This document shows, piece by piece, positions 1 through 21,641 of a DNA stretch of 64,000 bases (positions within the stretch are counted from its first letter, which is position 1; each line of letters begins with the position of its first letter). A program made the position numbers and the translations under genes. The notes beneath the pieces are model-generated. The model ran no database searches and was not told the DNA's origin. It saw only the letters and a list, made by a program, of their open reading frames with translations. Origin of the DNA: a virus; IMG/VR virus record IMGVR_UViG_3300025870_000008, positions 16,843 through 80,842 of that record, one strand, 5' to 3'.

Positions 1-2
1 AC

Positions 3-242
3 GTTTGCATTAAGCCAAGCGCTATTTATGTTGACGAGACAGCCCCTCAAGTGGACGGACTTGACGCGGGAACTTCAGTTTATACTAGCAAAGAGAAAGC
101 CGAGCAAGACGGACATTTTGTTTGCCCCGCAACTTATGTAAAGGGCGAGGACGGCAAGATTCTTGCAACTTGTCAAGCCCATAATTGCAATCTTTGTTTC
201 ATTAAGGGTTGCAAGAAAGGTATTGCATATTTAGCTCATTAA
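3..242 (+). CDS. 5'-truncated phage protein with Cys-rich C-terminus (Gp88-like)
   Basis: Frame is open from the window edge. Ends in CPAT...TCQAHNCNLC...IAYLAH, a Cys cluster pattern I recall from phage Gp88-like proteins. Confidence 0.5.
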   Translation, partial: VCIKPSAIYVDETAPQVDGLDAGTSVYTSKEKAEQDGHFVCPATYVKGEDGKILATCQAHNCNLCFIKGCKKGIAYLAH

Positions 243-257
243 ACTATACTTAAAACC

Positions 258-467
258 ATGAAGACAGAAAATTACCAACTATTATTCGAGAGCGGGGATA
301 CTTATTACGATTCAGCCTATGGAGTTGATATTGACCAAGACCGAGCAATTCAGGAGTTGAAAGCTCACGGGGTTGATTTAGAAAAAGAATTGCAAAATTT
401 TTATGATGATTTAGGCGACAAAGAAGGGTACGCAGCGCAAGACGTCTTAGAGTGGTTAGGGTACTGA
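258..467 (+). CDS. small acidic hypothetical phage protein
   Basis: 69-aa ATG ORF; the stop lies 2 bp before repeat element 1. Confidence 0.7.
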   Translation: MKTENYQLLFESGDTYYDSAYGVDIDQDRAIQELKAHGVDLEKELQNFYDDLGDKEGYAAQDVLEWLGY

Positions 468-469
468 CA

Positions 470-542
470 TAAGTACCTAACCACCAAGCACTTAGAGAGC
501 GCGGCGGCGGCGGTGCCTAACTGCTTGATATTCAACGATTTA
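470..542. repeat. double-palindrome element 1
   Basis: TAAGTACCTAACCACCAAGCACTTA (470-494) + 23-bp GC-rich spacer + TAACTGCTTGATATTCAACGATTTA (518-542). Confidence 0.9.
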
Positions 543-569
543 AAGAATTAAAATTAATTCACTTTTTTC

Positions 570-604
570 TTGTGTTTATTTGGTGTCGGGGTTATGTTGT
601 TAGT
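570..604 (+). promoter_or_regulatory. sigma70-type leaderless promoter
   Basis: TTGTGT-17bp-TATGTT-6bp-ATG(605). Confidence 0.55.
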
Positions 605-811
605 ATGAATCATTCAGAAAGCGGAACACGAAAAGTATTAAAACAACTGCGCAAATGCGCAGAAATTACCGAGATCAAACAAACCGCCAAAGGGCACATG
701 GTTCTCGCTGATAACGGAGCGCAAATTCTTGTTCATTTAAGCGCTCGTGCTTTTCACCCATTACGTCGTTGGCTCAAAGCTAACACTTCACTAAAATCAT
801 TAAAATTCTAA
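605..811 (+). CDS. small basic protein, possibly HicA-like
   Basis: Start moved to ATG 605 from promoter geometry. Size and the KQL...TAKGHMVL..NG..ILVH...LRRWL pattern recall the HicA dsRBD-like fold. Confidence 0.5.
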   Translation: MNHSESGTRKVLKQLRKCAEITEIKQTAKGHMVLADNGAQILVHLSARAFHPLRRWLKANTSLKSLKF

Positions 812-813
812 TT

Positions 814-996
814 ATGACAGCAAAAGAACTAATCGAACTTATCAATTCAACCCAGGACGGAGAGATTTGGCTCTACAGTAGTAAACTTAGAGACCATCTT
901 GCCACAGTCGAGCAAGCATTGGAGGAGGATTTAATCCACTTCATCCGCGCTGACGTAGGGAACAGCACCACAGAATTCATTCGTGTTTCTATTTGA
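814..996 (+). CDS. hypothetical protein
   Basis: 60-aa ATG ORF starting 2 bp after the previous stop. Confidence 0.65.
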   Translation: MTAKELIELINSTQDGEIWLYSSKLRDHLATVEQALEEDLIHFIRADVGNSTTEFIRVSI

Positions 997-1027
997 CACA
1001 GAGCAAAAATTAAACTACTTTATACTT
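993..1027 (+). promoter_or_regulatory. sigma70-type leaderless promoter
   Basis: TTGACA-17bp-TACTTT-6bp-ATG(1028). Confidence 0.7.
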
Positions 1028-1267
1028 ATGACAATTAAAGACAACGGAAAAGAATTCTACTTCGAGCGCTTACCTAATGGCTTGCTCAGAACTTATGACT
1101 ATGAATCAAAGTGGGATATTACATTCCAACGAGTTGACGGAGTATGGGAAGGACACCATCGAGGCGACTATATCGGCTACAAAGGCTTACTCAACAAACT
1201 CAACTTATTACAACAACAAGTAGATGCAGAAAGAGCATTAGCAAAAGATTTAGCCGAAGTAGCTTGA
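1028..1267 (+). CDS. hypothetical protein
   Basis: Start moved to ATG 1028 (MTIKDNG...) from promoter geometry. Confidence 0.7.
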   Translation: MTIKDNGKEFYFERLPNGLLRTYDYESKWDITFQRVDGVWEGHHRGDYIGYKGLLNKLNLLQQQVDAERALAKDLAEVA

Positions 1268-1300
1268 CAAACAAAACAAACTAATTTAGTTTATTATTAT
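1264..1300 (+). promoter_or_regulatory. sigma70-type promoter
   Basis: TTGACA-17bp-TAGTTT-8bp-ATG(1301). Confidence 0.7.
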
Positions 1301-1687
1301 ATGAAAACATTCGATGATTTAAAATTCACACACCATAAAGATATTCAAAGATGGACTGCATCGCTTGAGCTTGACAACGGATATTTATTTTCTGTTATTG
1401 CGGGCGACAAAGAAGACGATTGGTCTTTACCTTATGGTACTTATCAGAATGAAACTTTTGAAGTTGCAGTATTTGGTACTCAATTTGACGACAACGGAGA
1501 CAGAAAGAAAGTTCCTCTTTCTTTACATGATGATGTGCTAGGATGGCAAAAGCCTATTGACATTTCTAAACTCATGAGGCAATTTCAACTTGACGGAAAA
1601 GCTCACGAAGATTTGCTTATAGCAATTCGAGTAGACTTCAATGAAAAACTTGTTTCGCATCACGATGACAAACCTTTAGTCATTTAA
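1301..1687 (+). CDS. conserved hypothetical phage protein
   Basis: 128 aa; the NGY..SVI...G....FEVAV...DV.GW pattern is common in small phage proteins. Confidence 0.75.
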   Translation: MKTFDDLKFTHHKDIQRWTASLELDNGYLFSVIAGDKEDDWSLPYGTYQNETFEVAVFGTQFDDNGDRKKVPLSLHDDVLGWQKPIDISKLMRQFQLDGKAHEDLLIAIRVDFNEKLVSHHDDKPLVI

Positions 1688-1688
1688 T

Positions 1689-1723
1689 TTGACAAACCTT
1701 AAAAACTACATTACCTTATTATT
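1689..1723 (+). promoter_or_regulatory. sigma70-type leaderless promoter
   Basis: TTGACA-17bp-TACCTT-6bp-ATG(1724). Confidence 0.7.
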
Positions 1724-1990
1724 ATGACATTAACACAAGAACAAAGAATATCGGTTATCAAACACGCGCACGAAAATTCTCGTAAAGTTTCTCCGACTCA
1801 ATCAGTCGAGGATTTTATTGCAGACATCAAGTCAGAGCAAGTTTTGGGCGAGCATGGTTTAGTAGATGCTCAAGTCCACGACGTGGAGGATGAGATGTCT
1901 TTATTCGCTTATAATCCTTGCGCTGAAGATATTGACGAGGAAGAAGATGGCTTTGGAATTAGCGATGAAATGAAAGGGCTTTACTCATGA
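1724..1990 (+). CDS. acidic hypothetical protein
   Basis: 88-aa ORF with its own promoter and an acidic C-terminus. Confidence 0.7.
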   Translation: MTLTQEQRISVIKHAHENSRKVSPTQSVEDFIADIKSEQVLGEHGLVDAQVHDVEDEMSLFAYNPCAEDIDEEEDGFGISDEMKGLYS

Positions 1991-2046
1991 GTTTATTTGC
2001 AATCGCTATACTTGCATTAGTTTTATACTTGACAATTCAAGATTAA
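1987..2046 (+). CDS. putative 19-aa hydrophobic peptide (MSLFAIAILALVLYLTIQD)
   Basis: ATGA overlap with the upstream stop; forms a single TM-like helix. Confidence 0.4.
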   Translation: MSLFAIAILALVLYLTIQD

Positions 2047-2129
2047 AACTATAAACAGCGAAATACCAAATACCCAAATATTTTGTTTGTCGAAGGTGTG
2101 ATATGCAGTAGTTACTAAAACCCCCGCCC

Positions 2130-2201
2130 TAAGTCTTTGATTATCAAGCACTTAGGCGGGCGGCTGCCGAAGCACCTAAGTGCTTCAGTATCAACGACTT
2201 A
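2130..2201. repeat. double-palindrome element 2
   Basis: TAAGTCTTTGATTATCAAGCACTTA (2130-2154) + 22-bp GC-rich spacer + TAAGTGCTTCAGTATCAACGACTTA (2177-2201). Confidence 0.95.
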
Positions 2202-2441
2202 TTAAAAGTCGTATTGGTCGTGATAGCCGTAGTCGATGTCCTCGTAATGGTCTTCCCATACGGGGGAATCTTCAGCCTCGTACATTTCAGCGAGAAGAGG
2301 TTGCTCCTCAAGGTAGCGCTCTTCCGCAAGGGCTTGGTTTGCTCGAGCAATATCTCTATTGATCTCCTGCATTTGGTGGGCTTGCTGGTTTGCAAGGGCG
2401 GCGTGATCGTTGCGGTCGAAGTGTGAGTATTTACTAATCAT
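2202..2441 (-). CDS. acidic hypothetical protein (single-gene inverted cassette)
   Basis: MISKYSHF... preceded by TTGCTA-17bp-TATGTT-8bp-ATG; the stop abuts element 2. Confidence 0.7.
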   Translation of the reverse strand: MISKYSHFDRNDHAALANQQAHQMQEINRDIARANQALAEERYLEEQPLLAEMYEAEDSPVWEDHYEDIDYGYHDQYDF

Positions 2442-2505
2442 ATATAAACAACATAAAGGGAGTGGCAACGGATAGCAAGAAAAAAAGCGATTTATTTTTA
2501 TTTTT

Positions 2506-2578
2506 TAAATCCTTGGTTATCAAGCACTTAGAGCTCGCGGCGGCGGGCCGATATAACTCTTTGATTATCAACATTTTA
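2506..2578. repeat. double-palindrome element 3
   Basis: TAAATCCTTGGTTATCAAGCACTTA (2506-2530) + 23-bp GC-rich spacer + TAACTCTTTGATTATCAACATTTTA (2554-2578). Confidence 0.95.
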
Positions 2579-2640
2579 CACAAGATAAAAAAACTAAAGA
2601 TTTTTCTTGCTTTATTATACAGAACATGGCATATTAAAGT

Positions 2641-2745
2641 ATGAAAAGAAAAAAACTAAAAATTATTAAAATTAAACACGCTAAATCGTATAACAAATTT
2701 ATGATTGTTAAAATGCCTAAATTCTCACTTCTTAAATCTGCTTAA
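2641..2745 (+). CDS. 34-aa Lys-rich peptide
   Basis: MKRKKLKIIKIKHAKSYNKFMIVKMPKFSLLKSA, preceded by TTGCTT-17bp-CATATT-5bp-ATG. Confidence 0.5.
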   Translation: MKRKKLKIIKIKHAKSYNKFMIVKMPKFSLLKSA

Positions 2746-2747
2746 TT

Positions 2748-2972
2748 ATGAATTGCAAAAGAGTACCATACCCAGAACTAGACTGCTCCCTTAAAATGAG
2801 TAAAGTGGAGGGGCTGCTTCAATTCCTTAAAGGTCAGACTATGATGGGTTGGAGAGGAAGCGAGACAGAAAAAGAAGCAATTTGCGAAGCTCTTGACAAC
2901 TTACGAGAAGCTCAAGATGAATATCAAAAAGTCTTGACATTACTTAGAAAAACCAACAAAATAGAATTATGA
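2748..2972 (+). CDS. hypothetical protein
   Basis: 74-aa ATG ORF packed tightly between its neighbours. Confidence 0.6.
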   Translation: MNCKRVPYPELDCSLKMSKVEGLLQFLKGQTMMGWRGSETEKEAICEALDNLREAQDEYQKVLTLLRKTNKIEL

Positions 2973-3199
2973 CGGATACAACATATAATGGATGGAAAAA
3001 CTGGGCAACCTGGAACGTAGCGCTATGGCTAGGTAATGATGAGGGTCTTTATAAGATAGCTCGAAGATGTGTGAGGTATGCTGACCTCGTGGATAGGTTA
3101 GAAGAAGCTGAAGCATTCAGGACTCCTGACGGGGCGAGCTACAATGACCCCGACCTTGATACCTACGCACTTGATGAGTTGTTAATGGACGAATTCTGA
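2969..3199 (+). CDS. conserved small phage protein (YNGWxNxxTWNVALW family)
   Basis: Carries the YNGWKNWATWNVALWLGNDEGLY motif widespread in phages; promoter TTGACA-17bp-CAAAAT-6bp-ATG. Confidence 0.8.
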   Translation: MTDTTYNGWKNWATWNVALWLGNDEGLYKIARRCVRYADLVDRLEEAEAFRTPDGASYNDPDLDTYALDELLMDEF

Positions 3200-3204
3200 T
3201 AACC

Positions 3205-3276
3205 TAACCCGCTGACTATCAAGCACTTACGAAGCGGGCTGCCGAGCCCTCTAAGTGCTTGATTATTAGTGACTTA
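3205..3276. repeat. double-palindrome element 4
   Basis: TAACCCGCTGACTATCAAGCACTTA (3205-3229) + 22-bp GC-rich spacer + TAAGTGCTTGATTATTAGTGACTTA (3252-3276); lies between convergent genes. Confidence 0.95.
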
Positions 3277-3284
3277 GGAGGTTG

Positions 3285-3437
3285 TTATTTATTTTTGAAT
3301 TCGTTAATGATTTGGTTAAAAGTCCAAACGTTGTTTCCAACGTCCAAGAATAGTTCTGCGCCTTCGAGTGGTTCAAAGCCTAGGCGGTCAATGATGCCTA
3401 GCTCTTCCGTCATGAATTTTTCGAGTTCTTCTGTCAT
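3285..3437 (-). CDS. 50-aa hypothetical protein
   Basis: MTEELEKFMTEELGIIDRLGFEPLEGAELFLDVGNNVWTFNQIINEFKNK, with an AGGAG SD upstream; below the ORF-track size cutoff. Confidence 0.6.
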   Translation of the reverse strand: MTEELEKFMTEELGIIDRLGFEPLEGAELFLDVGNNVWTFNQIINEFKNK

Positions 3438-3468
3438 GTTTTTATTCTCCTAAATTAAAGGGTTTATG

Positions 3469-3813
3469 TCAAATTAAATCGTAATATTTTGGTGAACAAT
3501 TTACTGAATGAGAAACTGAATCAATTCCCTCATCCATGTTTTTTTTCAAATATGCTTTGATTTTGTTTGCAATTTCGAGGTCAATTTTTTCAAGCTTTTT
3601 TCCGTCTTCGTCAAATATGTCCATATTTTCCAAAGTGTCGAAATATGCTATCAGGTGAGTCTCTGAGACTTGGTCGCCATAGAGCGAGTCGATTTCGTCT
3701 GTCCATGTCGTGCCTTCAATTTCACAAGTTAAATTTTCAATTTCCACATAGGCAGAAAAAGTTTCTTCGTTAATTTCGTCAAAGTTTAATTCTAGTTTTT
3801 TATTTTCTGTCAT
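3469..3813 (-). CDS. highly acidic hypothetical protein
   Basis: 114 aa, D/E-rich, with its own leaderless promoter. Confidence 0.75.
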   Translation of the reverse strand: MTENKKLELNFDEINEETFSAYVEIENLTCEIEGTTWTDEIDSLYGDQVSETHLIAYFDTLENMDIFDEDGKKLEKIDLEIANKIKAYLKKNMDEGIDSVSHSVNCSPKYYDLI

Positions 3814-3847
3814 ACCTTACTATCTTCTATTTTTTAACTAAAGTCAA
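3814..3847 (-). promoter_or_regulatory. leaderless promoter, GATAGT class
   Basis: TTGACT-17bp-GATAGT-5bp-ATG(3813). Confidence 0.75.
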
Positions 3848-3927
3848 ACATATAGCCGATTATTTTACATAAAGTTATTCACAATTATCTTGGCTAGAGT
3901 TGGCACGATTCCTGTACAAGGCTTTCA

Positions 3928-3998
3928 TAAGTCGTTGATTATCAAGCTGTTACGAGAGCCGCAGCGCGTTCCCTAAGTGCTTGACTATAAGGAACTTA
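3928..3998. repeat. double-palindrome element 5
   Basis: TAAGTCGTTGATTATCAAGCTGTTA (3928-3952) + 21-bp GC-rich spacer + TAAGTGCTTGACTATAAGGAACTTA (3974-3998). Confidence 0.95.
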
Positions 3999-4003
3999 CA
4001 ACG

Positions 4004-4174
4004 CTATCTTTGAGTCATAGCCTCTAGCTCTCGGATCTTAAAGTCAAGCTGAATTTGCATGGCTTGCAAGCGATTGACTGATTCGGTTTTATTTAGACGT
4101 TTTGCTTTTATCCTTTGGATATTGATATCCATGATTTGCTTATTTAAGAATTTGATTTGTTCTACTATATTCAT
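4004..4174 (-). CDS. 56-aa coiled-coil-like hypothetical protein
   Basis: MNIVEQIKFLNKQIMDINIQRIKAKR...; the stop lies 5 bp from element 5. Confidence 0.6.
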   Translation of the reverse strand: MNIVEQIKFLNKQIMDINIQRIKAKRLNKTESVNRLQAMQIQLDFKIRELEAMTQR

Positions 4175-4287
4175 TTTCTTGACACGTCTTGGAAAAGGTC
4201 GATTTGATCGCTAGTCATATCTCTATACATAAGATAGAAAACAACTAACCAATTTGAGAACATAAGTATTTCAAGTATTGTATTCAT
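4171..4287 (-). CDS. 38-aa hydrophobic peptide
   Basis: MNTILEILMFSNWLVVFYLMYRDM...; promoter TTGTCT-17bp-TAATCT-6bp-ATG. Confidence 0.55.
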   Translation of the reverse strand: MNTILEILMFSNWLVVFYLMYRDMTSDQIDLFQDVSRK

Positions 4288-4341
4288 GATTATAGATTAA
4301 GGAAGTAGTAAACAAAAGACAAGCATATTATTGTAAGCATA

Positions 4342-4509
4342 TTATTTTTCTTTTATTTGGTTTACGATTTGCAAGTGTGGATTCTCGCGTTTGATTGCCC
4401 TTGCTTTTTCTAAGGCTTTTGCTATATTCTTTTGATTGTCTACTAGCTCGCCCCAAAGACGAATATCTAACCAATTTGAGAAGTTTACGTTTTTTGTGAT
4501 TGTTATCAT
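4342..4509 (-). CDS. 55-aa hypothetical protein
   Basis: MITITKNVNFSNWLDIRLWGELVDNQ..., with an AGGAGG SD upstream. Confidence 0.6.
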   Translation of the reverse strand: MITITKNVNFSNWLDIRLWGELVDNQKNIAKALEKARAIKRENPHLQIVNQIKEK

Positions 4510-4519
4510 TATTGCCTCC

Positions 4520-4714
4520 TTATCTTGTGAAGTATTCTTTTACTTGTCCATTGTTAGCTTTAACCAAGTCAGAGAGGTAAACCTCTTCTGATTCGTTGTG
4601 ATGCTTTACTAAAGCTAAGCGCATTCTGTTGCTCAGTTCAGTTACTCTTACGACTTTGCCTAATGACTTCGAGAAGTACAGGCTTCCGACTTTGTATCCT
4701 TTTTCAATCTTCAT
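4520..4714 (-). CDS. small SH3/KOW-like beta protein
   Basis: 64 aa with a YKVGSLY...GKVVRVTE pattern and its own promoter. Confidence 0.7.
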   Translation of the reverse strand: MKIEKGYKVGSLYFSKSLGKVVRVTELSNRMRLALVKHHNESEEVYLSDLVKANNGQVKEYFTR

Positions 4715-4749
4715 ACTATTACTATCGTATATTTTAGCCTCTACGTCAA
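4715..4749 (-). promoter_or_regulatory. leaderless promoter, GATAGT class
   Basis: TTGACG-17bp-GATAGT-AATAGT-ATG(4714). Confidence 0.75.
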
Positions 4750-4786
4750 ACTTTTTAACGATTTATTTTAGCTGTTTTTGCTTTCT

Positions 4787-4857
4787 TAAGTCGTTGATTA
4801 TTAGGCACTTATGACGCGGGCGGCGCGACCCCTAAGTGCTTGAATATCAGGTGTTTA
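4787..4857. repeat. double-palindrome element 6
   Basis: TAAGTCGTTGATTATTAGGCACTTA (4787-4811) + 21-bp GC-rich spacer + TAAGTGCTTGAATATCAGGTGTTTA (4833-4857). The last 3 bp are the stop codon of ORF 4855-5079. Confidence 0.95.
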
Positions 4858-5079
4858 GGAATGCCGAGCTTCTAACTTATCAAGGAACTTTTCAAACCTT
4901 TTGTGCTTGACTTTTAGTTCGGCAAGTCTCTTTTCTGCTCTCCTTAGCTCGGGCATGGCAAGCATTTCGATTGCCATTTCATCTGCCTTTGGATTTGTCG
5001 AGTTCTTACGGGTGTTATCTATTACGGATTTGATTTGCTTGATCCGTGCTTCGGTGTGGATTATATCTAATTCTGTCAT
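4855..5079 (-). CDS. helical hypothetical protein
   Basis: 74 aa; promoter TTGCAA-17bp-GATAGT-AATAGC-ATG. Confidence 0.7.
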   Translation of the reverse strand: MTELDIIHTEARIKQIKSVIDNTRKNSTNPKADEMAIEMLAMPELRRAEKRLAELKVKHKRFEKFLDKLEARHS

Positions 5080-5117
5080 GCTATTACTATCGTTTATTTT
5101 TTAATTAATTGCAAACT

Positions 5118-5279
5118 TTATTTGATAAAGTTTACCCAAGATTCAACTCTTTGATTCCAAGTTAGTTGGGCTTTCGCTTCTGCATCCCATATATCTATTA
5201 GAGCGTCGAGTATCCAAACTTGACGCTTTTGCAAGCGCGCTTTTCTCATCACCTTTGTTATTCTTTCTAGTCTTGTCAT
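5118..5279 (-). CDS. 53-aa hypothetical protein
   Basis: MTRLERITKVMRKARLQKRQVWILDALIDIWDAEAKAQLTWNQRVESWVNFIK, starting 1 bp after the upstream stop. Confidence 0.55.
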   Translation of the reverse strand: MTRLERITKVMRKARLQKRQVWILDALIDIWDAEAKAQLTWNQRVESWVNFIK

Positions 5280-5280
5280 A

Positions 5281-5601
5281 TTAGCTAAGTGCTTTGATTA
5301 ATTCGTTTTCGTTTGTGTTACTAACAAGCGAGCGGTTAAGTACATTGTACAGAAAGCTTTCGATTATGTTTTCCAATTCTTCAACATCATAAGTTAAGGA
5401 GATTTCCTTTTCGTCTTCATCTTCGATAGATTCGACCTCGATGGAATCGACAAGCACGTTGCCATCTTCTGTCTCTAAAGTAGCGTTTACACTCATGCCA
5501 CCCTCAAAGTAGTTTTTACCTGTGTTAAAGTTTAGGTATACGTTTACAACGTTGTCGTCGATGCAGTCGATGGTGTCTAGTTCTAGTTCTTTAATGTTCA
5601 T
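5281..5601 (-). CDS. highly acidic hypothetical protein
   Basis: 106 aa, D/E-rich; promoter TTGACT-17bp-GATAGT-AATAGT-ATG at 5602-5636. Confidence 0.75.
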   Translation of the reverse strand: MNIKELELDTIDCIDDNVVNVYLNFNTGKNYFEGGMSVNATLETEDGNVLVDSIEVESIEDEDEKEISLTYDVEELENIIESFLYNVLNRSLVSNTNENELIKALS

Positions 5602-5826
5602 ACTATTACTATCGTCTATTTACAGGTTGAAGTCAAATTTATTTACGATTATTATTCAACTAAGTTTTTGCACGATCCCGCCCCCATTTTTTGAATTTTT
5701 TTTACAGGGTATGGTTCATTTTTAGCGGGGGGGTGGTTTTTCTCAAAAAGTCAAGACGAATTTCTCTGTGCAATTACATATGTGAAAAAAAAACCGACAA
5801 ACCTTTTTTTTACTGTACTCATATGT

Positions 5827-8790
5827 ATGTCCCTAATAGATTCACTGGAAGAATTCCGCGAGCAATATTTCCCGAAAATTTCGCCGCAAGCAGAATACAA
5901 GATTATTAAAAAAAACGACTCTCCTCAAAATAATGGTATATTTAATGATGCGAGATTGCTCTCTCTAAAGGAGTCTACCCGCACTCGCACGGGAAAAGAG
6001 AAAACTTCTTTGTTCGATAAATACAACCCAAATCCTGACCAAAGCATAAGTTTAGAAGATTATGCGTTAGCGAAAGAATCGATGGGAGAGGAGCCGTTTG
6101 CGCAACTTTACAGACAGCACGTCTTAGAAATACTTAACCCTACTTCTTATGAGTCGCAAGCTAGTTTTAGATATAAGGCTACAGCTAGTGACGATACATC
6201 CTCATGTGATAGCATGAAACCACAGCAGGTTTCAAATGACACATGGGACTTCGTTAAGTCGATCTATGATGATATTTGCGACGATGGTGGTGGCTGTGAC
6301 GAGGGAGTCGTAACAGATTGCGAAGGAACTTGCGGGGGCGGAAAAACCTTCGATTGTCTTGGTGTTTGCGGCGGAACCGCCGCAACTGATTCTGTAGGAC
6401 AATGTTGTGAGCCTTCAGAAATGGGATGCGATGGCAAGTGCGCAGGTGAACTTGGGATATCTTTTCAGAGAACGGATGCGAAAGGTGCTAGCGAATGCTG
6501 TGAAACCACTAATGTAGAATGTGTAAAGTGTACCAGAGAATCTGGAGAATCCTATACGATGTGTCCAGAACATGAATCACCTGGAGGTAATGACGGTGGT
6601 GGTAGCGGTGGTGGTAGTAGCAACAACGCTTCTACGAAGATATGCGAATCGATGTATTTGCCACCCTCTAACATTTTCGAAAAAGAAGGAAAAGCTGTAA
6701 AAATAAATTTTGAGTCTGTGCCAGAATTAAGCGGGGTATATATTCCTAAAAGCAATCTAGCAGACTCTTGGATTCTAAATAGTAACGGGATTAATATAGC
6801 CAAAATTGAAACTTTGAAAAGTTTCGAAGGAACTTGTTTGATTCATTGGGAACTTTCTTTTAAAACTCAAAACGGAGAATTGGTAGATGTCGACAGCTCA
6901 GAAGAGGAGTGGGACCGCAAAATTTCAGTTTTATCAAAAAAATTCAGTGTATCTTACCCTAATAAGATTTTACAAAAATTTGTTTCTACAGCGGAATCTT
7001 TAATAAAAACCAACCCATCAGAGGTAGAAATACGCGCGGCTGTCAACGAATTAAGAGAATACTTTGATTTTTGGCCTGACAAAAAAAATATTTTAGATTT
7101 CACTACTTCAAATATAAGTGCACGTGATTCGCTTGCCAACGCTTTAGATTTTGTTACTAATACATTAAGTGGTGCATATGAAACCCAAGCATCAAAAATC
7201 CGAGCAGAGGTCATTGACTACGACTATAATGTGCCTAGTGATGATACAAGTTCAGAATTTTGTGCAACTTCTTTATCTGGAGGGAAAACGGCTTTCCACT
7301 GGAAAGCTCCATTAAGAACCAACCAAACTGGATGGAGAATTGCCATCAAGATTGTTGATGGCATTGTTGATATTAATCATGATGTAAGTGCAGACAGATG
7401 TGGTCACACAGTAACCAGAAATGATTCGTGGGAGCAAATTGAGCTCATGAGGCGTTATAGTAATGGCAATACTGATACTGCAAAAACTTTACTGGTGAAT
7501 CAAATGGATTCTTGCTTAGAGTCTACTATATGCCCTTCATCGGACACTAAGTTAATTCAGAAAAAACTATCTTTTCGATGGGGCTGTAATTCAGTTTTCA
7601 GTTCTGAAGTTGTTACGGTTGATTTCTCAATAGAAAAAGATGCTATAGAAAATTATATAGATGTAAAAGTTTTAAGCTCATCAACTGAGTATTGCGACGG
7701 AGCAGATAATATTTATTTTGATAATGTAAAAATATTAGACGATAATTCAAATATTGAGGTTGACTATACTAGTCAAGTAGAAAAATATAAATATATTAAA
7801 AATGACGAACAATCTTCTACTTTTGAAGTATGGCTACGTATCAAGCATCCAACTATCACAAATGGAGCATTTGAGGATTTCATAGTTATTCAGCCAGCTC
7901 CAACCCCAACCGAAACTCAAACTCAAACTCAAACTCAAACTAACTTTCAATCTTCCTCCTTAGGTAATTTTAAGTTTTACGCAATGAAAGAAGACTTGGG
8001 GTATTTAGAAACTTGTTCGGCTGGATATTTTGTTTTATCTCTGAAGAAGTATAATGAAAATAATTTCGTACAACAAGGAACAAATAAAGTTTTTTCCAGC
8101 GGCTCTTCGGGGTCAAATATGTACAATGTTCCATTTTTAACTCTTGGAGACGAAGGTTCAGAGATTGCAATTGACGCTGGAGACACTATTAAATTAAGGT
8201 ATAGAGCTATGCCTCTGTCAGGCAGTCCTTACCTGGGTACAGGATGTTATTCTTTTTATCAAAAACCCAATAAGATTTCTATTGAACATGGAAATGTTGA
8301 AGATACTGGTGCTACGTCCAATCCAGTTATTACTGGATGGTTAAAAAATGCTGAATTAGCTAATTCTAGCAGTGAGGCATTTACTGATTTTGAATATACA
8401 TTCTCGGAATCCGACGGGGACAAATTGACCTGGTGTGCAGTAATGAAAAGTGCCCCAATTACTGACTTTAAGGTTTCTGGAGGGGGCCTCGGGTCACCTT
8501 TCTATAATTTTATATTCCAGCATCCATATGGTAATGAAATTACCACATCTAGCTTACGGCTAGTCCCTGGGCTTACCTATACTTTCACTGCAGATGGAAT
8601 AAGTGCATCTCACCCGTTCTCGATTGGGCCTAGCTATGGTAATACTTCTCTAGGGTGGGTCAGCGGCTCTGCTTTAACAGGTAGTTCGGGGACTATAACG
8701 GTTGATGTTCCTTCTGATTACAGTGGTGATCTTTATTATTTTTGCAAACATCACACTAGCATGATGTCTGAAATACAAATTTTAAATTAA
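5827..8790 (+). CDS. large Cys-rich repeat protein with C-terminal cupredoxin-like domain (probable virion/surface protein)
   Basis: DCxGxCGG repeats, Gly/Ser and TQ linkers, and C-terminal HPF...LYYFCKHHTSM. ATG 5827 preferred over GTG 5782. Confidence 0.7.
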   Translation: MSLIDSLEEFREQYFPKISPQAEYKIIKKNDSPQNNGIFNDARLLSLKESTRTRTGKEKTSLFDKYNPNPDQSISLEDYALAKESMGEEPFAQLYRQHVLEILNPTSYESQASFRYKATASDDTSSCDSMKPQQVSNDTWDFVKSIYDDICDDGGGCDEGVVTDCEGTCGGGKTFDCLGVCGGTAATDSVGQCCEPSEMGCDGKCAGELGISFQRTDAKGASECCETTNVECVKCTRESGESYTMCPEHESPGGNDGGGSGGGSSNNASTKICESMYLPPSNIFEKEGKAVKINFESVPELSGVYIPKSNLADSWILNSNGINIAKIETLKSFEGTCLIHWELSFKTQNGELVDVDSSEEEWDRKISVLSKKFSVSYPNKILQKFVSTAESLIKTNPSEVEIRAAVNELREYFDFWPDKKNILDFTTSNISARDSLANALDFVTNTLSGAYETQASKIRAEVIDYDYNVPSDDTSSEFCATSLSGGKTAFHWKAPLRTNQTGWRIAIKIVDGIVDINHDVSADRCGHTVTRNDSWEQIELMRRYSNGNTDTAKTLLVNQMDSCLESTICPSSDTKLIQKKLSFRWGCNSVFSSEVVTVDFSIEKDAIENYIDVKVLSSSTEYCDGADNIYFDNVKILDDNSNIEVDYTSQVEKYKYIKNDEQSSTFEVWLRIKHPTITNGAFEDFIVIQPAPTPTETQTQTQTQTNFQSSSLGNFKFYAMKEDLGYLETCSAGYFVLSLKKYNENNFVQQGTNKVFSSGSSGSNMYNVPFLTLGDEGSEIAIDAGDTIKLRYRAMPLSGSPYLGTGCYSFYQKPNKISIEHGNVEDTGATSNPVITGWLKNAELANSSSEAFTDFEYTFSESDGDKLTWCAVMKSAPITDFKVSGGGLGSPFYNFIFQHPYGNEITTSSLRLVPGLTYTFTADGISASHPFSIGPSYGNTSLGWVSGSALTGSSGTITVDVPSDYSGDLYYFCKHHTSMMSEIQILN
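7915..7938 (+). repeat. (ACTCAA)4 tandem repeat encoding a TQ linker
   Basis: Read directly from the sequence. Confidence 0.85.
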
Positions 8791-8844: not shown

Positions 8845-9573
8845 ATGCCAAGAAAGAAAAAACCTGAAATTGATAATGATCAGGATATAGATAGAATAGT
8901 TGGTTCAATCAGAAAAACAAAAATTAAAACACATAAATTTGAGTTTTCTGAAAAGCAAAGCGAGCTATTAAAAATTATTTTTGACAAAGATACAAAAGTA
9001 GTATTTATATCTGGCCCAGCGGGAACAAGTAAAACGTTTATGACGATTTATGCAGCGATTCACTTGTTTAACATGAACAATGATTACTCCATCGGATACG
9101 TGAGATCAATCATTGAGAGTGCTGACAGAGGAATGGGAGCACTTCCTGGAACTGTAGATGAAAAGTTTTGTCCATTCATGATGCCTTTAAACGATAAGCT
9201 GCATGAGCTCACAAGCTCTTCTGAAGCTAAAACGATGGTAGACAAAGGTATTGTATCCGCAATGCCAATAAACTACCTCAGGGGGGCTAGTTTTAAAGAT
9301 CAGATAATTATCGCCGACGAATCTCAAAACTTCACATCGAAAGAACTCATAACTCTATTAACAAGAATTGGAGAAAACACAAAAATGTTAATTTGCGGTG
9401 ATCCAATGCAAAGTGATATCAATGGAAAAAGCGGTTACCAGCCCATTATGAATATTTTTGATGATGAGCATAGTAAAAAACTAGGTATACATAATTTTCA
9501 TTTTGACCATAGAGATATTAAGCGTAGTGAAATATTAAAATTTATTGTTAAAAAGTTAGAAAAACTAAAATAA
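8845..9573 (+). CDS. phoH: PhoH-family ATPase
   Basis: GPAGTSKT Walker A, YLRGASF, DESQN, GDPMQSD and DIKRS motifs. Confidence 0.93.
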   Translation: MPRKKKPEIDNDQDIDRIVGSIRKTKIKTHKFEFSEKQSELLKIIFDKDTKVVFISGPAGTSKTFMTIYAAIHLFNMNNDYSIGYVRSIIESADRGMGALPGTVDEKFCPFMMPLNDKLHELTSSSEAKTMVDKGIVSAMPINYLRGASFKDQIIIADESQNFTSKELITLLTRIGENTKMLICGDPMQSDINGKSGYQPIMNIFDDEHSKKLGIHNFHFDHRDIKRSEILKFIVKKLEKLK

Positions 9574-9714
9574 AGTTGTAATTTAATAATAAATTAACTT
9601 CTTTAAAAGGGTATTTTTATTGAAATAGAGGGTTTTAAGCTTCTGTGTGGACTATATTTTTTTACACAATGAAGGTTTATTTTTTGGTCTAAAAGTGTAT
9701 AATTTAATACTGGC

Positions 9715-10896
9715 ATGATTGACCAAATGCAAATTATAAAACATATAAAAACTAACTTACCTATAGTTTGTTTAGATCAAATAATAAAATACGAGGATAG
9801 CCAAATAGTGGACTGGGGCTTAGTACAAAATAAAATTCCAGAAACCTGGAAGGTTACAAAGGGCGAGGGCGTAAAAGTTATGGTGATTGATACTGGCCAC
9901 CCAGTCCACTCAGATATAGGCGGCAATGTGATTATAGGAGATAACTTTGTAGAAGATGAGCCTCATGAAGATCTTAATGGGCATCAAACTCATTGCACTG
10001 GAATTATATGCGCTAAAAACAATAAATTTGGCATGGTTGGGGTTGCTCCAGAGGTTCAATGTATATCAGTTAAAGCATTAAATAAAAACGGCTCTGGTAG
10101 CTTTAATGGTTTAGCTAAAGCTTTAGACTATGCGGTAAAAATAAAACCAGATATAGTTTCCATGAGTTTAGGGTCTCCAACTTACAGTGCATTAATCCAT
10201 AAAAAAATAAAAACTTTATATAATTTAAATATTCCTGTAGTATGTGCAGCGGGAAACTCTGGTAATGGCGGTGTTAATTATCCAGCGGCGTTTGAGGAAA
10301 CGATAGCGGTAGCTTCCTACAATAAGCGGGGTGGAATATCTTTTTTTTCATCAAAGGGCGAAGAGGTTGATTGGGCAGCTCCAGGGGAAAAAATATATAG
10401 TACATATTTAGGCAATAAGTATTCTGTGCTAAGCGGAACTTCTATGGCTTGCCCATTTTTGGTTGGAATTATAGCTTTAATGTTGTCGAAACACAGGTTG
10501 GAAGAGTCTCAGACTGGATACAATGACTGTAAAACAATTTCCCAAATCAAAGAGCATTTATTGAAGTATACACAAGATAAGGGGGCTAAGGGAAAAGATA
10601 ATCAATGGGGATATGGAGTAATAAATACAAAGGAAATGATCCTAGATAAAAATCCCGATGATGAATTTCCCGAGCCCCCTTTGGCACCCAAACCCAAGCC
10701 TGAACCTAAGCCTGAACCCGCCCCAAGCTTCTTAAAAAAGCATTTAGCATGGGTTGTACTCGGATTTTTCTTGTTAACAGTTGTGGCGTTTTATATTGCA
10801 TCGACTATTCAAGATGATAGCAATATAGATATTCCATACATTGATGAACAAGGAAATGTAGACTGGGACAAAAAATTTAAACTAGAAACACAATGA
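9715..10896 (+). CDS. subtilisin-like S8 serine protease with Pro-rich linker and C-terminal TM anchor
   Basis: Catalytic motifs IDTG, GHQTHCTG, AAGN and GTSMACP; PKPEP linker followed by a hydrophobic helix. Confidence 0.92.
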   Translation: MIDQMQIIKHIKTNLPIVCLDQIIKYEDSQIVDWGLVQNKIPETWKVTKGEGVKVMVIDTGHPVHSDIGGNVIIGDNFVEDEPHEDLNGHQTHCTGIICAKNNKFGMVGVAPEVQCISVKALNKNGSGSFNGLAKALDYAVKIKPDIVSMSLGSPTYSALIHKKIKTLYNLNIPVVCAAGNSGNGGVNYPAAFEETIAVASYNKRGGISFFSSKGEEVDWAAPGEKIYSTYLGNKYSVLSGTSMACPFLVGIIALMLSKHRLEESQTGYNDCKTISQIKEHLLKYTQDKGAKGKDNQWGYGVINTKEMILDKNPDDEFPEPPLAPKPKPEPKPEPAPSFLKKHLAWVVLGFFLLTVVAFYIASTIQDDSNIDIPYIDEQGNVDWDKKFKLETQ

Positions 10897-11084
10897 AAGA
10901 AGGTAAAACAATTCATTTTCATTATAATAACGAGGTTAAAACAGGGTTGATTTTAAAAATTTATACCCAAATAGGTGGGGAAAACCATCGGGAAGTAATG
11001 GTGGTAATTAGAATAAATGAGGAAAGCGGTCTTTTCGAGCAGGGTACGATAAATATAAAACATTCCGACTTACACTTAATTTAA
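10893..11084 (+). CDS. hypothetical protein
   Basis: 63 aa with ATGA overlap. Confidence 0.6.
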   Translation: MKEGKTIHFHYNNEVKTGLILKIYTQIGGENHREVMVVIRINEESGLFEQGTINIKHSDLHLI

Positions 11085-11126
11085 TTAAAATAGAAAAAAA
11101 CCAAAATTATCCGTATAATATGTTAT

Positions 11127-11369
11127 ATGGACATGGTAATATCTTCTTTAGTTGGCGCTGTTTCAGCTATTATTGTGGCATTTATACATTTAAAAAATGC
11201 TAAGAAACAAAAAGACAAAACTTGCGAAAAAATAATCAATAGTTTAAATGTTGATCGGGGTAATATAATTATTATTGATTCTGATAGCCGAAAGGGTTTT
11301 GATTTTAAAGGTAAAATCAAACATTTCTCAAAAGGGAGTGAAAGTAAGGTGTACATTCTAATAAGATGA
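11127..11369 (+). CDS. small membrane-anchored protein
   Basis: N-terminal hydrophobic helix. Confidence 0.6.
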   Translation: MDMVISSLVGAVSAIIVAFIHLKNAKKQKDKTCEKIINSLNVDRGNIIIIDSDSRKGFDFKGKIKHFSKGSESKVYILIR

Positions 11370-11659
11370 GTGTTAAATATTGCCCCCACTGCGGAGAAAA
11401 AAATACTTTCGTTGGGAAAGCTCCTAATTTTTGTAACTATTGCGGTTCCAGCTTTAGCTCTAAAAGTATTAGTTTAAATAATCGATCTAACTCCACAACC
11501 AATACTGAACAAATTGAAACTTTTGATGCTGATTATACGGATGCAAATTACGTGCCTAATATAACTAAATTAAGTTATGAAACAGAAGGTTTTCAAAAGA
11601 AAACTTTTAAATTTGACGAGTTAATCAGTGAAGAACAACGAAAAACCCAAGAAACCTAG
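11366..11659 (+). CDS. zinc-ribbon protein
   Basis: YCPHCG...FCNYCG motif. Confidence 0.8.
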   Translation: MSVKYCPHCGEKNTFVGKAPNFCNYCGSSFSSKSISLNNRSNSTTNTEQIETFDADYTDANYVPNITKLSYETEGFQKKTFKFDELISEEQRKTQET

Positions 11660-12368
11660 AGGCAGGCCTAGGAAAAAAACTTTTGAGGATAATCAAGATT
11701 TTATATTTGAAAAAATAAATCTTAGAAAAAACTCTTGGTTTTTAAGTTCCGTAAGTTGGATATCGTGGGAGGATGTCAGCCAGATTGTTGCTCAACACAT
11801 TTATACAAAATGGCACCTTTGGGACCAAAAGAGACCTTTAACACCTTGGGTAAACAGAATTATAACCAATCAAATCAAAAATTTATTAAGAAATTACTAT
11901 GGTAATTTTTTAAGACCCTGTTCTCAGTGCCCTTTCAATAACACGGGGTCTATAGACTACTTAAACGAAAAAGAAAATGGGTGCTCTTGGACTAAATCTG
12001 GTAAGCAAGACTGCACATGCCCTTTGTTTAAAAAATGGAATAATACAAAAAAACATTCTTTTCATATAAATACTGCTAGTAGTATAGAAAGTTTAACCAC
12101 GGAGCAATCCTCTAGGGATAAAAATTTCAATATTGATCGTTCAACTGAAAAACTGCACGTTTATATGAAATCCCATTTAAACCCAAAGCAATACAAAATA
12201 TACAAAATGCTTTACATAGAACATAAAAGCCCTCAGGAGACAGCTCAATCTTTAGGCTACAAGAGTAGTGAAAAGGGTAGGCATGCTGGATATAAACAAA
12301 TTAAAAATTTTGAAAAACAGTTTAAAGAACAAGCTAAAAAAATAATTAAAAAATATGACATTATCTAA
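11628..12368 (+). CDS. ECF-like RNA polymerase sigma factor with Cys-rich insertion
   Basis: Region-2-like EDVSQ...WD..RPLTPWVNRIITNQIKNLLR and region-4-like LNPKQYKIYKMLYIE..SPQETAQSLG. Confidence 0.7.
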   Translation: MKNNEKPKKPRGRPRKKTFEDNQDFIFEKINLRKNSWFLSSVSWISWEDVSQIVAQHIYTKWHLWDQKRPLTPWVNRIITNQIKNLLRNYYGNFLRPCSQCPFNNTGSIDYLNEKENGCSWTKSGKQDCTCPLFKKWNNTKKHSFHINTASSIESLTTEQSSRDKNFNIDRSTEKLHVYMKSHLNPKQYKIYKMLYIEHKSPQETAQSLGYKSSEKGRHAGYKQIKNFEKQFKEQAKKIIKKYDII

Positions 12369-13404
12369 GGAGCAAAAACAATTTATTATTGATAATTTTA
12401 ATAAAACACCCGATTTGATTGAACTTACTAGGCAAGTATTTGATAACGAAGAGTTGGACGGTAGGACAAAAGAAGGTCGAGCGGTTCGTAAGTTTTTGGT
12501 TGAAAGAGGTTTGAAATTCAATACAACACAAAAACAAAAGAAAGAGGAGATTGAGTTCTCTCAGGAACAAAAAGAATTTATGATTCAGTATGCCAAAGAA
12601 GGTATGACGGCATATGAAATTTCAAAAATATTATTTCCTGAAGTTAATGTTACAAACTTAAGCAAGGAAGTTACAGAAGTTGCTAAGTTTATAGAAGATG
12701 TTGATTTTAGGCTTATGCATCCATCTGAAAACGCATTAAATGCTCAATATTTCCCTCCAAAATCAAATTCTAGAGTCATTAAAAAGATTAACGAATACTG
12801 CCAAGAAGAAATCGATGAAAAGCAGGTGAGTCGCGGGGAAATGGACAATATAGAGAGCACGATGAAGTTTTTGGCGGCACCTCGGTTTATTCAGGTTATT
12901 AACACTTATACATCTGTAGATGATAGAAAACTCTTTGAAGCTGAATATACAAGATCTGTATGGGATAAACCAGACTTAACAAGTGATGAATTAAATTTAT
13001 ATATCAATGTTTGTATGGATTATATACATTTAAAAAATATAAGTAAAGCTATTAATAAATTAAATAGAATGTTTGAAGATTGTGAAGATCAACAAGATAT
13101 GACTGTTAGATTAGCAGAACTATTAAAAACAAAGAGTGAAGAATATAATCAATGTGAAAAGAGACAAGAAACATTGATAGCTAGATTAAATGGAGATAGA
13201 AAAGAAAGAATAAAGAATAAACATAAAGATAATGCATCTATATTATCGTTAGTAAGATTGTTTCAAAATGAAGCTGATAGAAACAGGATGATAGACATGG
13301 CTGAGAAGCAAAAAATGCTAATCGCCCAAGAAGTTGATAATATAGAGAGGATGGATGTCTGGAAGGCTAGAGTACTCGGAATCGCTAAAGATGATGTTTT
13401 ATAG
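12355..13404 (+). CDS. conserved helical phage protein (possible terminase small subunit or DNA-binding protein)
   Basis: Two related LS/FSxEQK helical repeats and a coiled-coil C-terminus; lies upstream of TerL. Confidence 0.55.
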   Translation: MTLSKEQKQFIIDNFNKTPDLIELTRQVFDNEELDGRTKEGRAVRKFLVERGLKFNTTQKQKKEEIEFSQEQKEFMIQYAKEGMTAYEISKILFPEVNVTNLSKEVTEVAKFIEDVDFRLMHPSENALNAQYFPPKSNSRVIKKINEYCQEEIDEKQVSRGEMDNIESTMKFLAAPRFIQVINTYTSVDDRKLFEAEYTRSVWDKPDLTSDELNLYINVCMDYIHLKNISKAINKLNRMFEDCEDQQDMTVRLAELLKTKSEEYNQCEKRQETLIARLNGDRKERIKNKHKDNASILSLVRLFQNEADRNRMIDMAEKQKMLIAQEVDNIERMDVWKARVLGIAKDDVL

Positions 13405-13489
13405 CCTAGACGGGGGTTTTCGCGGTACTTCTATCTCTTGTTGCCATTTAAGGCAATTGGAGAGAAAGGAACAATTTCTTTTTTAAAAA

Positions 13490-16275: not shown

Positions 16276-16324
16276 CTTTAATTTTACTTTTTAACTTTTA
16301 TGTGTACTATTAATATACACAGCT

Positions 16325-18400: not shown

Positions 18401-18422
18401 TTTATTGTGTACAAGTTGAATA

Positions 18423-19007
18423 ATGAAGAATTTTATTACTATTGACTTATCAAACTTAATAAACGAAAAAGATTTATTCTGCAAAGACTGTGGAAACTCT
18501 GAAGAAATATCCATGGAGTCATGGGCAGAAGAAAAAAATAAAGGTAAAACATTAAACAAGCCCTTTAGAACCCCAAAGGGTCCAAAAAAGTTTTCAGTAT
18601 ATGTGAAAAACGAAAAGGGTAACATTGTTAAGGTTAACTTTGGAGATCCCAATATGTCAATAAAGCGAGATAGTCCAGAAAGAAGAAAGTCTTTCAGGGC
18701 TCGGCATAACTGCGCTAATCCTGGACCAAAAACAAAAGCTAGGTATTGGTCTTGCAGGCAGTGGAGAGCTGGCTCAAAAGTCGAAGGTTCGGATAAAAGT
18801 TTTTCAGAAGAAGATCTTGAGAAGCTATTATTAGAAGAGCTAGACGAGTCAGAAGCTAAAGACAGTAAACCAGGATTGTGGGAAAATATTAGAAAAAAGA
18901 AAAAAAGGGAGGGAAAAAATTACCAACCAGCAAAACCTGGAGATAAAGATAGGCCGTCAAAAGATGCTTACAAAAAAGCTCAAAAATCTAAAAAGGATAA
19001 AAAATAA
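18423..19007 (+). CDS. basic conserved viral protein
   Basis: VNFGDPNM...RRKSFRARHNC...ARYWSC.W and GLWENI motifs, widespread in large phages. Confidence 0.75.
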   Translation: MKNFITIDLSNLINEKDLFCKDCGNSEEISMESWAEEKNKGKTLNKPFRTPKGPKKFSVYVKNEKGNIVKVNFGDPNMSIKRDSPERRKSFRARHNCANPGPKTKARYWSCRQWRAGSKVEGSDKSFSEEDLEKLLLEELDESEAKDSKPGLWENIRKKKKREGKNYQPAKPGDKDRPSKDAYKKAQKSKKDKK

Positions 19008-20060: not shown

Positions 20061-20063
20061 TAT

Positions 20064-21629: not shown

Positions 21630-21641
21630 CAAAAACGAAAA

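Follow-up and report, generated by a model that had tools for sequence, protein, structure and literature searches.

Two described systems are among the closest to the locus reported here. Promoter-early stem-loop (PeSL) cassettes are regulatory modules of T4-type phages (Arbiol et al. 2010, PMC2839356; Comeau et al. 2014, PMC4122927). The PeSL is a repeated intergenic module in which an inverted repeat with a G/C-rich center is combined with an early promoter of the host sigma70 type and a stretch rich in A/T. Small ORFans in one hyperplastic region are flanked by it, relatives show insertion, deletion, and replacement of cassettes, and crossovers fall inside the module at variable points; the locus described here is alike in all of these respects. 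The stem-loops terminated transcription in reporter assays, and the authors left open whether a helper recombinase takes part (PMC2839356). The second system is the bacterial interspersed mosaic element BIME-1/RIB of Escherichia coli, in which an IHF site lies between two inverted repetitive extragenic palindromes (REPs) at the 3' ends of transcription units; REP and BIME elements have been reported as terminators, mRNA stabilizers, and topological insulators (PMC3333891). We analyzed a stretch of 64,000 nucleotides of viral DNA (the window), which is positions 16843-80842 of the 80,842-bp IMG/VR record IMGVR_UViG_3300025870_000008, designated G000. A double-palindrome element recurs in it between blocks of small early genes, and an earlier note on the window had proposed an integron- or shufflon-like system. 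Our preferred reading, to which we assign a probability of about 0.55, is that the elements are the conserved upstream or boundary part of PeSL-like composite modules that separate early-gene cassettes, that the palindromes are bound by protein, and that the cassettes are shuffled by homology.

Each element is 71-73 bp long and consists of two 25-mers, the starts of which are 46-48 bp apart, on either side of a GC-rich spacer of 21-23 bp; the surrounding DNA has 36-39% G+C. The six elements that had been placed in the window were all confirmed at their coordinates (Table 1). The inner half-site word, with no more than one mismatch, occurs 11 times in the window compared to 1.74 ± 1.20 times in shuffled sequence (0 of 100 shuffles reached 11), and 9 of the 11 occurrences fall in the six elements. 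The two imperfect palindromes described for each element are present, but the outer half-sites differ consistently from the inner ones at two positions, and each 25-mer is therefore only a quasi-palindrome. A position weight matrix (PWM) made from the twelve arms of the window identified five more elements upstream, at record positions 10491, 11431, 12999, 14464, and 15999. The total for G000 is 11 copies over 11.2 kb (record 10491-21699), of which the window holds the right-hand six; the array of six reported before was thus genuine but truncated by the edge of the window. A sequence-only model of the element, R1, was built from 34 elements, and the record was scanned on both strands. R1 (at E ≤ 1) and the PWM found nothing beyond the 11 copies in the whole of G000, and R1 at this threshold returned the same six only in the window, in agreement with the observation in the earlier note that the window held no further copies.

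The elements are intergenic, between unrelated complete genes, and 10 of the 11 copies in the record follow the 3' end of a gene. They delimit self-expressed blocks of small ORFan genes, as had been proposed. Strand switches do fall on elements at 2130, 2506, and 3205, but the next switch, at approximately 5601-5781, has no element. Stop codons are close to most elements, being 2 bp before 470, 0 bp after 2201, 5 bp before 3205, 8 bp after 3276, and 5 bp after 3998, with an overlap at 4855-4857; the exception is on the left of 2130, where the plus-strand genes end at least 84 bp away. The spacer sequence varies between elements and has no fixed polarity. In some elements (e.g., record 12999 and window 2130-2201, and others in the related records G001, G002, and G004), the edge of the spacer is an inverted short copy of the adjoining inner half-site, which produces an extra small palindrome centered on a TTAG/CTAA junction; some flanks pair with the spacer.

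A conserved module stands on the right of 7 of the 11 copies in the record. It consists of an A/T-rich linker of 27-28 nt, a -35 box (TTGTGT, TTGCTA, or TTGCTT), a 17-nt spacer, and a -10 box of the form NANNNT, a promoter of host type. An ATG is found 5-6 nt past the -10 box in 6 of these 7 modules, and the mRNAs would therefore be leaderless. The seventh module (copy 14464) has an ATG that opens a five-codon open reading frame (ORF) only, and the first long gene is approximately 100 nt downstream of that element. We scored the pattern TTGNNN-17-NANNNT around 47 elements in five records. A predicted promoter with an ATG and a -35 start at 26-28 nt from the end of the element was present for 28 of the 47, compared to 0.7% of random positions. 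The other distances to the -35 box were 37 nt (4 elements) and 80-81 nt (2 elements), which would correspond to roughly one and roughly five helical turns beyond 27 nt; overall, 34 of the 47 elements had a promoter and ATG within 95 nt. Elements outside the 26-28 nt class were located at gene 3' ends, and both convergent junctions of the window are among them.

The arm consensus, a 25-mer, is YAA-N4-TTGAT-W-ATCAA-N4-TTR. IHF, a DNABII protein, has the consensus WATCAR-N4-TTR, with sites such as lambda H' and H1 (bioRxiv 10.1101/382655). The arm consensus equals this sequence twice, from position 13 to 25 on the top strand and from position 13 back to 1 on the bottom strand, so that each 25-mer has two mirrored IHF-type boxes overlapping at the central W. 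Arm statistics were taken from 100 arms (50 elements). Elements of L010, a divergent lineage, were excluded from these because their outer boxes have decayed, and were included in all counts of 52 elements. Positions A2, A3, T9, T23, and T24 were invariant in the 100 arms and A17 was present in 99%, while the degenerate positions kept their class (Y at position 1 in 100% and at position 8 in 99%; R at position 18 in 99% and at position 25 in 98%; W at position 13 in 87%). The arm consensus agrees with the IHF consensus at each of its nine specified positions, and these are the best-conserved positions of the arm. Exact matches to the IHF consensus numbered 30 in the window compared to 9.13 ± 3.14 in shuffled sequence (0 of 100 shuffles reached 30), and 12 of the 30 were inside the six elements. 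Among the 208 half-sites of the 52 distinct elements, 62 were exact and 78 had one mismatch; the corresponding frequencies for 13-mers genome-wide were 0.024% and 0.14%. Elements with no phased promoter (24-30 nt; n = 15) matched the consensus as well as those with one (n = 26), and the elements that lack a phased promoter are therefore not decayed remnants. The pattern of conservation suggests that the palindromes are most likely protein-bound, in keeping with the proposal in the earlier note that they could be protein-binding sites, and the best-supported description of the element is that of a putative protein site, rigid and with four IHF-type boxes, and not of a hairpin under selection.

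Pairing within the element was assessed for a long hairpin, in which the left arm pairs with the right, and for two local hairpins. Watson-Crick pairing across the 52 distinct elements was 69% for the former and 66% for the latter. Mutual information of partner positions was not above that of shuffles at any position in either fold. The long hairpin in alignment A1 had 80.5% of cells paired compared to 82.4% in shuffles (500 of 500 as high), and its covariation score was 0.126 compared to 0.156 (499 of 500 as high); likewise, the local hairpins had 75.3% paired compared to 76.3% in shuffles. Positions 6-7 and 19-20 within the 25-mer were consistently mispaired (13% and 19% paired). Predicted RNA folds of the six elements, on both strands, differed from copy to copy with z-scores of -1.3 to -6.3, and a common RNA fold was rejected for this reason. 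These data indicate that pairing in the element is a by-product of the conserved sequence and is not itself selected. A terminator consensus scan of window positions 1-6000 identified five terminator-like sites, none of which was any of the six elements, and no T-run follows the elements. Rfam (4227 covariance models) had no match at E ≤ 1 in the same 6000 positions. A canonical terminator, with a G+C hairpin and a T-run, is located directly upstream of copy 14464 (record 14410-14460), and the same is seen before several elements in G002 and G004; ordinary terminators are thus also present in the phage.

These results bear on the possibility that the elements function at the RNA level, as two-way terminators or 3'-stabilizing hairpins in the manner of the PeSL stem-loop, and resemble one another only through duplication and gene conversion. 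We consider this unlikely as the explanation of the element family; a terminator role as a second function is possible. The placement of the copies fits termination, since 10 of 11 come after a gene 3' end and both convergent junctions carry an element while the divergent junction at 5601-5781 has none. The element is also symmetric with a GC-rich center, three of the 12 folds have z-scores of approximately -6.3, lineage L010 has an inner inverted repeat with a G-run/C-run center followed by T-rich sequence, and PeSL stem-loops terminate in the reporter assays of the report cited above (PMC2839356). However, compensating changes are absent and pairing is equal to or below that of shuffles for both folds; the folds vary by copy and have the mispaired positions 6-7 and 19-20; there is no T-run, and the terminator scan flagged none of the six. 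Moreover, canonical terminators stand directly before some copies, one copy lies between divergent promoters, and variation is confined to purine and pyrimidine classes, as for a protein site.

A pattern scan of IMG/VR produced 57 loci, of which 15 had PWM-positive pairs (12 of them true elements) and 42 had no PWM pair. Three loci, L015, L021, and L047, have a different-looking triple hairpin and were omitted from all counts. A triple repeat with a period of 49 nt, identical in all three, includes the same 9-base word (L015:3936-4058, L021:4203-4325, and L047:1744-1866); it is apparently a different element, on IMG/VR contigs of 131-182 kb and one of 6 kb. Related records G001 to G005 had 9-10 copies of the true element each within 10-12 kb, and G007 had ten. 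The 205,857-bp G006, which is rated complete, had nine, all within 25,176-34,339.

The ORFs were clustered into families, and the families were grouped into cassettes A (f4, f24), B (f9, f20, f1, f1, f10, f11, f5), C (f6, f12, f2), D (f21, f33), and E (f7, f18, f22, f34). These cassettes keep their content and change place among the relatives. The order is A-B-C-D-E in G000; C-A-B-E in G004 and G001, with D inside B and without flanking elements; B-C-E-A without D in G002 and G003; and B'-C-A in G005. Families f13 and f14-f15 form one cassette in G000 and two cassettes, in reversed order, in G001 through G004. We compared G000 to G002, G004, and G005 in alignment blocks of at least 200 bp, and 15 of 38 block ends were in or within 45 bp of an element compared to 14.3% expected (P = 1.2e-4). 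G003 was left out of this test, of junction mapping, of promoter phasing, and of the comparison of elements with and without promoters because it is nearly identical to G002, and pairs of G001 and G004 were left out of junction mapping as near-duplicates. Junctions were mapped between the closely related G002 and G004 lineages, as follows for G002. The element between A and f14 is chimeric, being identical to the A-B element of G004 through the left arm and the left part of the spacer up to its conserved center, and to the E-f14 element of G004 from there on. The element between f40 and B switches at the right end of the spacer. The element between B and C switches in the right arm or the linker, and the cassette C next to it has a promoter of the A type, the switch being at the ATG. 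Crossovers are thus spread over the element and promoter and are not at one fixed site. Gene content, order, and orientation between elements vary among relatives, with breakpoints at or in the elements, so the cassette shuffling suggested in the earlier note is borne out.

Marine metagenome contigs of four runs were compared with record positions 9501-23500, and the joint coordinates below count from that stretch. One variant contig skipped element 3205-3276 together with cassette 3285-3813 (joint 10534 to 11265). Another had 573 nt in place of the single-gene cassette 2202-2441 between its elements (joints 9527/9543 to 9895). In others, the promoter of C followed the end of cassette E (7914 back to 3625), or a single gene separating a promoter from the next ATG was deleted (7926 to 8155). 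All of them reflect strain variation among assemblies and provide no evidence of ongoing excision. RNA-library contigs (X15 and X16) spanned elements 12999, 14464, and 17312, with cassette D poorly covered and the last 1.4 kb of the compared stretch not covered at all; these contigs are from a diverged strain with possible DNA carry-over and therefore give no basis for conclusions about read-through or expression. Fourteen public marine runs, each from a different study by its listing, contained at least half of the words sampled from window 1-6000, and two of these are a possible source of the record.

Cassettes that are permuted, flipped, gained, and lost at elements could also be the work of dedicated integron- or shufflon-like recombination, in which an unrecognized recombinase of phage or host cuts the GC-rich spacer and the IHF-type boxes are accessory bending sites. 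IHF boxes flank many known recombination sites, and the well-resolved junction of G002 is in the conserved center of the spacer. The PeSL authors, in the text cited above, likewise left a helper recombinase open (PMC2839356). We searched ten records (G000-G002 and G004-G010), two of them rated complete, for tyrosine recombinases (PF00589, Phage_integrase), serine recombinases (PF00239, Resolvase), and Y1 transposases (PF01797, Y1_Tnp). All three were absent from the ten records (for PF00589, at E ≤ 0.01); PF00589 was found in 14 of 14 control genomes, and controls were positive for the other two as well. The junctions are scattered over the spacer, right arm, linker, and promoter/ATG, cassette D lies inside B without flanking elements in G004, and the spacer is variable without fixed polarity. 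We therefore regard a dedicated site-specific system as very unlikely.

The comparison with integrons leads to the same view. As in integrons, imperfect palindromes abut cassette stops in an array of small accessory genes. However, an integron has IntI beside the array, and its cassettes are promoterless, in one orientation, and expressed from a common Pc, whereas the cassettes here occur on both strands with promoters of their own. An attC site conserves its folded structure while its sequence varies; our elements conserve sequence and not pairing. Shufflons and invertase systems (Rci, Hin) need a tyrosine or serine invertase, of which the ten records had none, and their short inverted sites are inside or beside one variable gene, to which they give alternative protein ends or promoter orientations, unlike elements between unrelated complete genes. 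The integron/shufflon reading fails its defining tests and is not upheld.

REPIN-like doublets from a host chromosome, spread by a host RAYT transposase, represent a further possibility, and the arrangement of two inverted imperfect palindromes around a short spacer recalls the REP doublets described in the source cited for BIME-1 (PMC3333891). The REPIN/RAYT system has a Y1 (HUH) transposase, the family absent from the ten phage records, and its copies are numerous and scattered along a bacterial chromosome; a pattern scan of bacterial genomes had no true element by PWM among the at least 120 loci listed. With copies confined to one 10-kb region and in register with promoters, this explanation appears extremely improbable.

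We propose the following model for the preferred reading of protein-bound boundary modules. The full module comprises the 72-bp double palindrome, an A/T-rich linker of about 27 nt, host-type -35 and -10 boxes, and an ATG 6 nt past the -10. Each 25-mer would be a protein site of two mirrored IHF-type boxes, and on the element, around the stiff GC-rich spacer, a DNA-bending DNABII protein could assemble as one or two pairs, the simplest candidate being host IHF. The bent complex may then have an architectural role, both upstream of early promoters and where transcription units have their 3' ends, as an enhancer, an insulator, or both. Because the element and promoter, about 170 bp, recur approximately every kilobase, ordinary recombination and gene conversion between copies would be driven by homology. 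Exchange between copies would move, delete, replace, and flip cassettes together with their own expression signals, as described for PeSLs.

Several points weigh against this reading. The equal conservation of elements without a phased promoter means that an activator role alone cannot explain the element family, and the role at convergent junctions and the GC-rich spacer are unexplained by the model. Some copies fold well as RNA, with z-scores down to -6.3 in the folds counted above, and the divergent lineage L010 keeps only the inner inverted repeat and GC-rich center followed by T-rich sequence, which is terminator-like. The fixed spacing may partly reflect common descent of duplicated modules. 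The IHF assignment is a consensus match and presumes a host with IHF. A usual IHF site is asymmetric with an A-tract on the other half, unlike the mirrored and overlapping boxes seen here, and also unlike two 25-mers held 46-48 bp apart. The N4 of the inner box is conserved too (G 78%, C 88%, A 91%, C 83%), which the IHF consensus does not explain; another protein, or IHF with extra preferences, may therefore read the site. No DNABII gene above cut-off was found in the phage records searched, and a RecA-family gene was not found in the five phage records searched, which leaves the recombination machinery without a candidate. The first gene of cassette E (f7; record 16134-16334) encodes a strongly acidic protein of 66 amino acids that is conserved in six of six records compared. 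Its similarity to the HU/IHF family, over the N-terminal part of that family, was below threshold (14.9 bits), and it was not counted as a DNA-binding candidate; it might act as a mimic or an inhibitor and not bind DNA itself.

The conserved inner N4 is also an argument for a different kind of protein. The elements could be operators at which a dimeric regulator encoded by the phage, not of the DNABII family, switches the early promoters, and the resemblance to IHF sites would then be a coincidence. The dyad symmetry of the 25-mer, the fixed geometry, and the fixed distance to the -35 box would suit such an operator. However, a scan of 20 small early ORFs revealed no recognizable DNA-binding domain, nor was one found among the larger early proteins, elements with no phased promoter are equally conserved, and all nine IHF-consensus positions match, the three degenerate classes included. 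We judge the operator explanation to be distinctly unlikely.

A more ambitious version of the protein-site reading, and one that we hold to be rather improbable, makes the element a purpose-built nucleoprotein "cassette joint" that insulates leaderless early units, with the spacer as the preferred exchange point for an unrecognized enzyme of phage or host in a true cassette-exchange system. With two in-phase DNABII U-turns on the inner boxes, the GC-rich spacer would form a small loop, the protein dyads being by our estimate approximately 42 bp, or four helical turns, apart. A large clade of uncultured phages would in that case swap host-takeover and anti-defense genes by a route distinct from integrons and from plain homologous recombination.

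Set against the PeSL, the modules preferred here have clear differences. The element is a rigid inverted repeat of 71-73 bp with four conserved boxes, conserved in sequence and not in pairing; it also occurs without a promoter, at convergent junctions; and the ATG is 6 nt past the -10 without a Shine-Dalgarno sequence. PeSL carriers are T4-type myoviruses, whereas the present phage is not demonstrably T4-type, given its large terminase (TerL) and a tape-measure protein of 2798 amino acids. For the PeSL, terminator activity and excised mini-circles have been shown, whereas the present elements are described from sequence. Among bacterial elements the closest analogue is BIME-1/RIB, which is likewise a repeated composite palindrome with an IHF-type site at the 3' ends of transcription units. 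The layout is inverted, however, with the IHF-type boxes here in the A/T-rich palindromes and the GC-rich piece between them. Our elements also differ from BIME-1 in being on a phage, in one region, and in register with promoters, with no Y1 transposase found. The T5 injection-stop repeat region is a different kind of repeat region. A CIRCE/HrcA operator, which shares a six-base core with the element, was dropped because the spacing here is approximately 22 nt and not 9, and the spacer has only a loose resemblance to Chi. We found no published description of arrays of IHF sites in phage early regions in the open literature searched.

Table 1. Elements, promoters, and gene cassettes of the early region, in window coordinates
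Feature	Position	Strand	Setting or content	Exact IHF-consensus boxes
Element, copy 6 of 11	470-542		Between two plus-strand genes	1
Early promoter module	543-607	+	27-nt linker; -35 TTGTGT 570-575; 17-nt spacer; -10 TATGTT 593-598; ATG 605; leaderless by geometry	
Cassette	605-2046	+	Small ORFan genes of 68, 60, 79, 128, and 88 amino acids and a 19-amino-acid ORF; several with their own TTGACA-17-TAnnTT-6-ATG promoters	
Element	2130-2201		Convergent junction without adjoining promoter; stop of minus-strand gene abuts at 2202-2204	3
Single-gene cassette	2202-2441	-	79 amino acids; between two elements	
Early promoter module, leftward, adjoining element 2506-2578	2439-2505	-	-35 2473-2478; -10 2450-2455; ATG 2441-2439	
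Element	2506-2578		Divergent junction, early promoters on both sides; lowest score in window	3
Early promoter module, rightward	2579-2643	+	28-nt linker; -35 TTGCTT 2607-2612; -10 CATATT 2630-2635; ATG 2641	
Cassette	2641-3199	+	Genes of 34, 74, and 76 amino acids (last is DUF7249)	
Element	3205-3276		Convergent junction without adjoining promoter	2
Cassette	3285-3813	-	Genes of 50 and 114 amino acids	
TTGACT-17-GATAGT promoter	3847-3819	-	80 nt left of element 3928-3998; ATG 3813	
Element	3928-3998		Between two minus-strand genes	
Cassette	4004-4714	-	Genes of 56, 38, 55, and 64 amino acids	
TTGACG-17-GATAGT promoter	4749-4721	-	37 nt left of element 4787-4857; ATG 4714	
Element	4787-4857		Between two minus-strand genes; ends in the three-base stop codon of gene 4855-5079 (-)	

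The cassette genes are ORFans. A Pfam match above the curated cut-off was found for 1 of 10 only (DUF7249, a family without known function), and a PHROG search of the cassette genes had no function-naming match except one that was borderline (E = 0.009). Promoters inside cassettes were seen on the plus strand at window 993-1030, 1264-1303, 1689-1726, and 2934-2971 and on the minus strand at 3847-3811, 4749-4712, and 5636-5599. They have the form TTGAC(A/T/G)-17-(TAnnTT or GATAGT) with an ATG 5-8 nt past the -10 and belong to repeat families D2, D5, and D6; Shine-Dalgarno sequences are absent from them, and these mRNAs would therefore also be leaderless. The hydrophobic ORF of 19 codons at window 1988-2046 overlaps the stop of gene 1724-1990 and is followed by approximately 84 nt of non-coding sequence and then the element at 2130. 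At record 9236-9681, approximately 400 nt without a long ORF are conserved at 73-77% in G001 through G004.

Just past the early region are PhoH (window 8845-9573), a subtilase-family protease (9715-10896), and a weak sigma-70 region-2 match (11628-12368). G000 also encodes rIIA, rIIB, and the large terminase. Its tape-measure protein (window 32189-40585; PhageMin_Tail at residues 123-314) is very long for an 81-kb record, and no replication genes were noticed. CheckV rates G000 (80.8 kb) as 100% complete, the related 57-84 kb records as 44-64%, and the relative of 205,857 bp as 100%; in view of that larger relative and these ratings, G000 may be a fragment. The best matches of TerL were to Bacillus and Clostridium phages at 25-27% identity, and rIIA was 27% identical to the rIIA proteins of T4-like phages; both comparisons are too distant to name a host. 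A blastn search of 8 kb against cultured phages matched only the DUF7249 gene, in Synechococcus phages, and the element alone had chance matches only (E = 0.7). Hairpin promoters of the N4 type were dropped from consideration because the tape-measure protein is present and a giant virion RNA polymerase was not seen; the phage is not N4-like.

If the preferred reading is true, the PeSL principle, in which a tool-kit of early genes is shuffled by way of repeated promoter and boundary modules, is not peculiar to T4-type phages: uncultured marine phages of a widespread lineage have it too, built on an element that is different and more elaborate. The element is a simple sequence marker of the hyperplastic early region, in which genes for host takeover and counter-defense are expected, and of the exact limits of its cassettes, and the strict leaderless promoter geometry is useful for annotating these phage genomes. 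The IHF-type boxes predict binding and bending by a nucleoid protein of the host, on which early promoters or insulation may depend, and they hint that the host is a bacterium with IHF.

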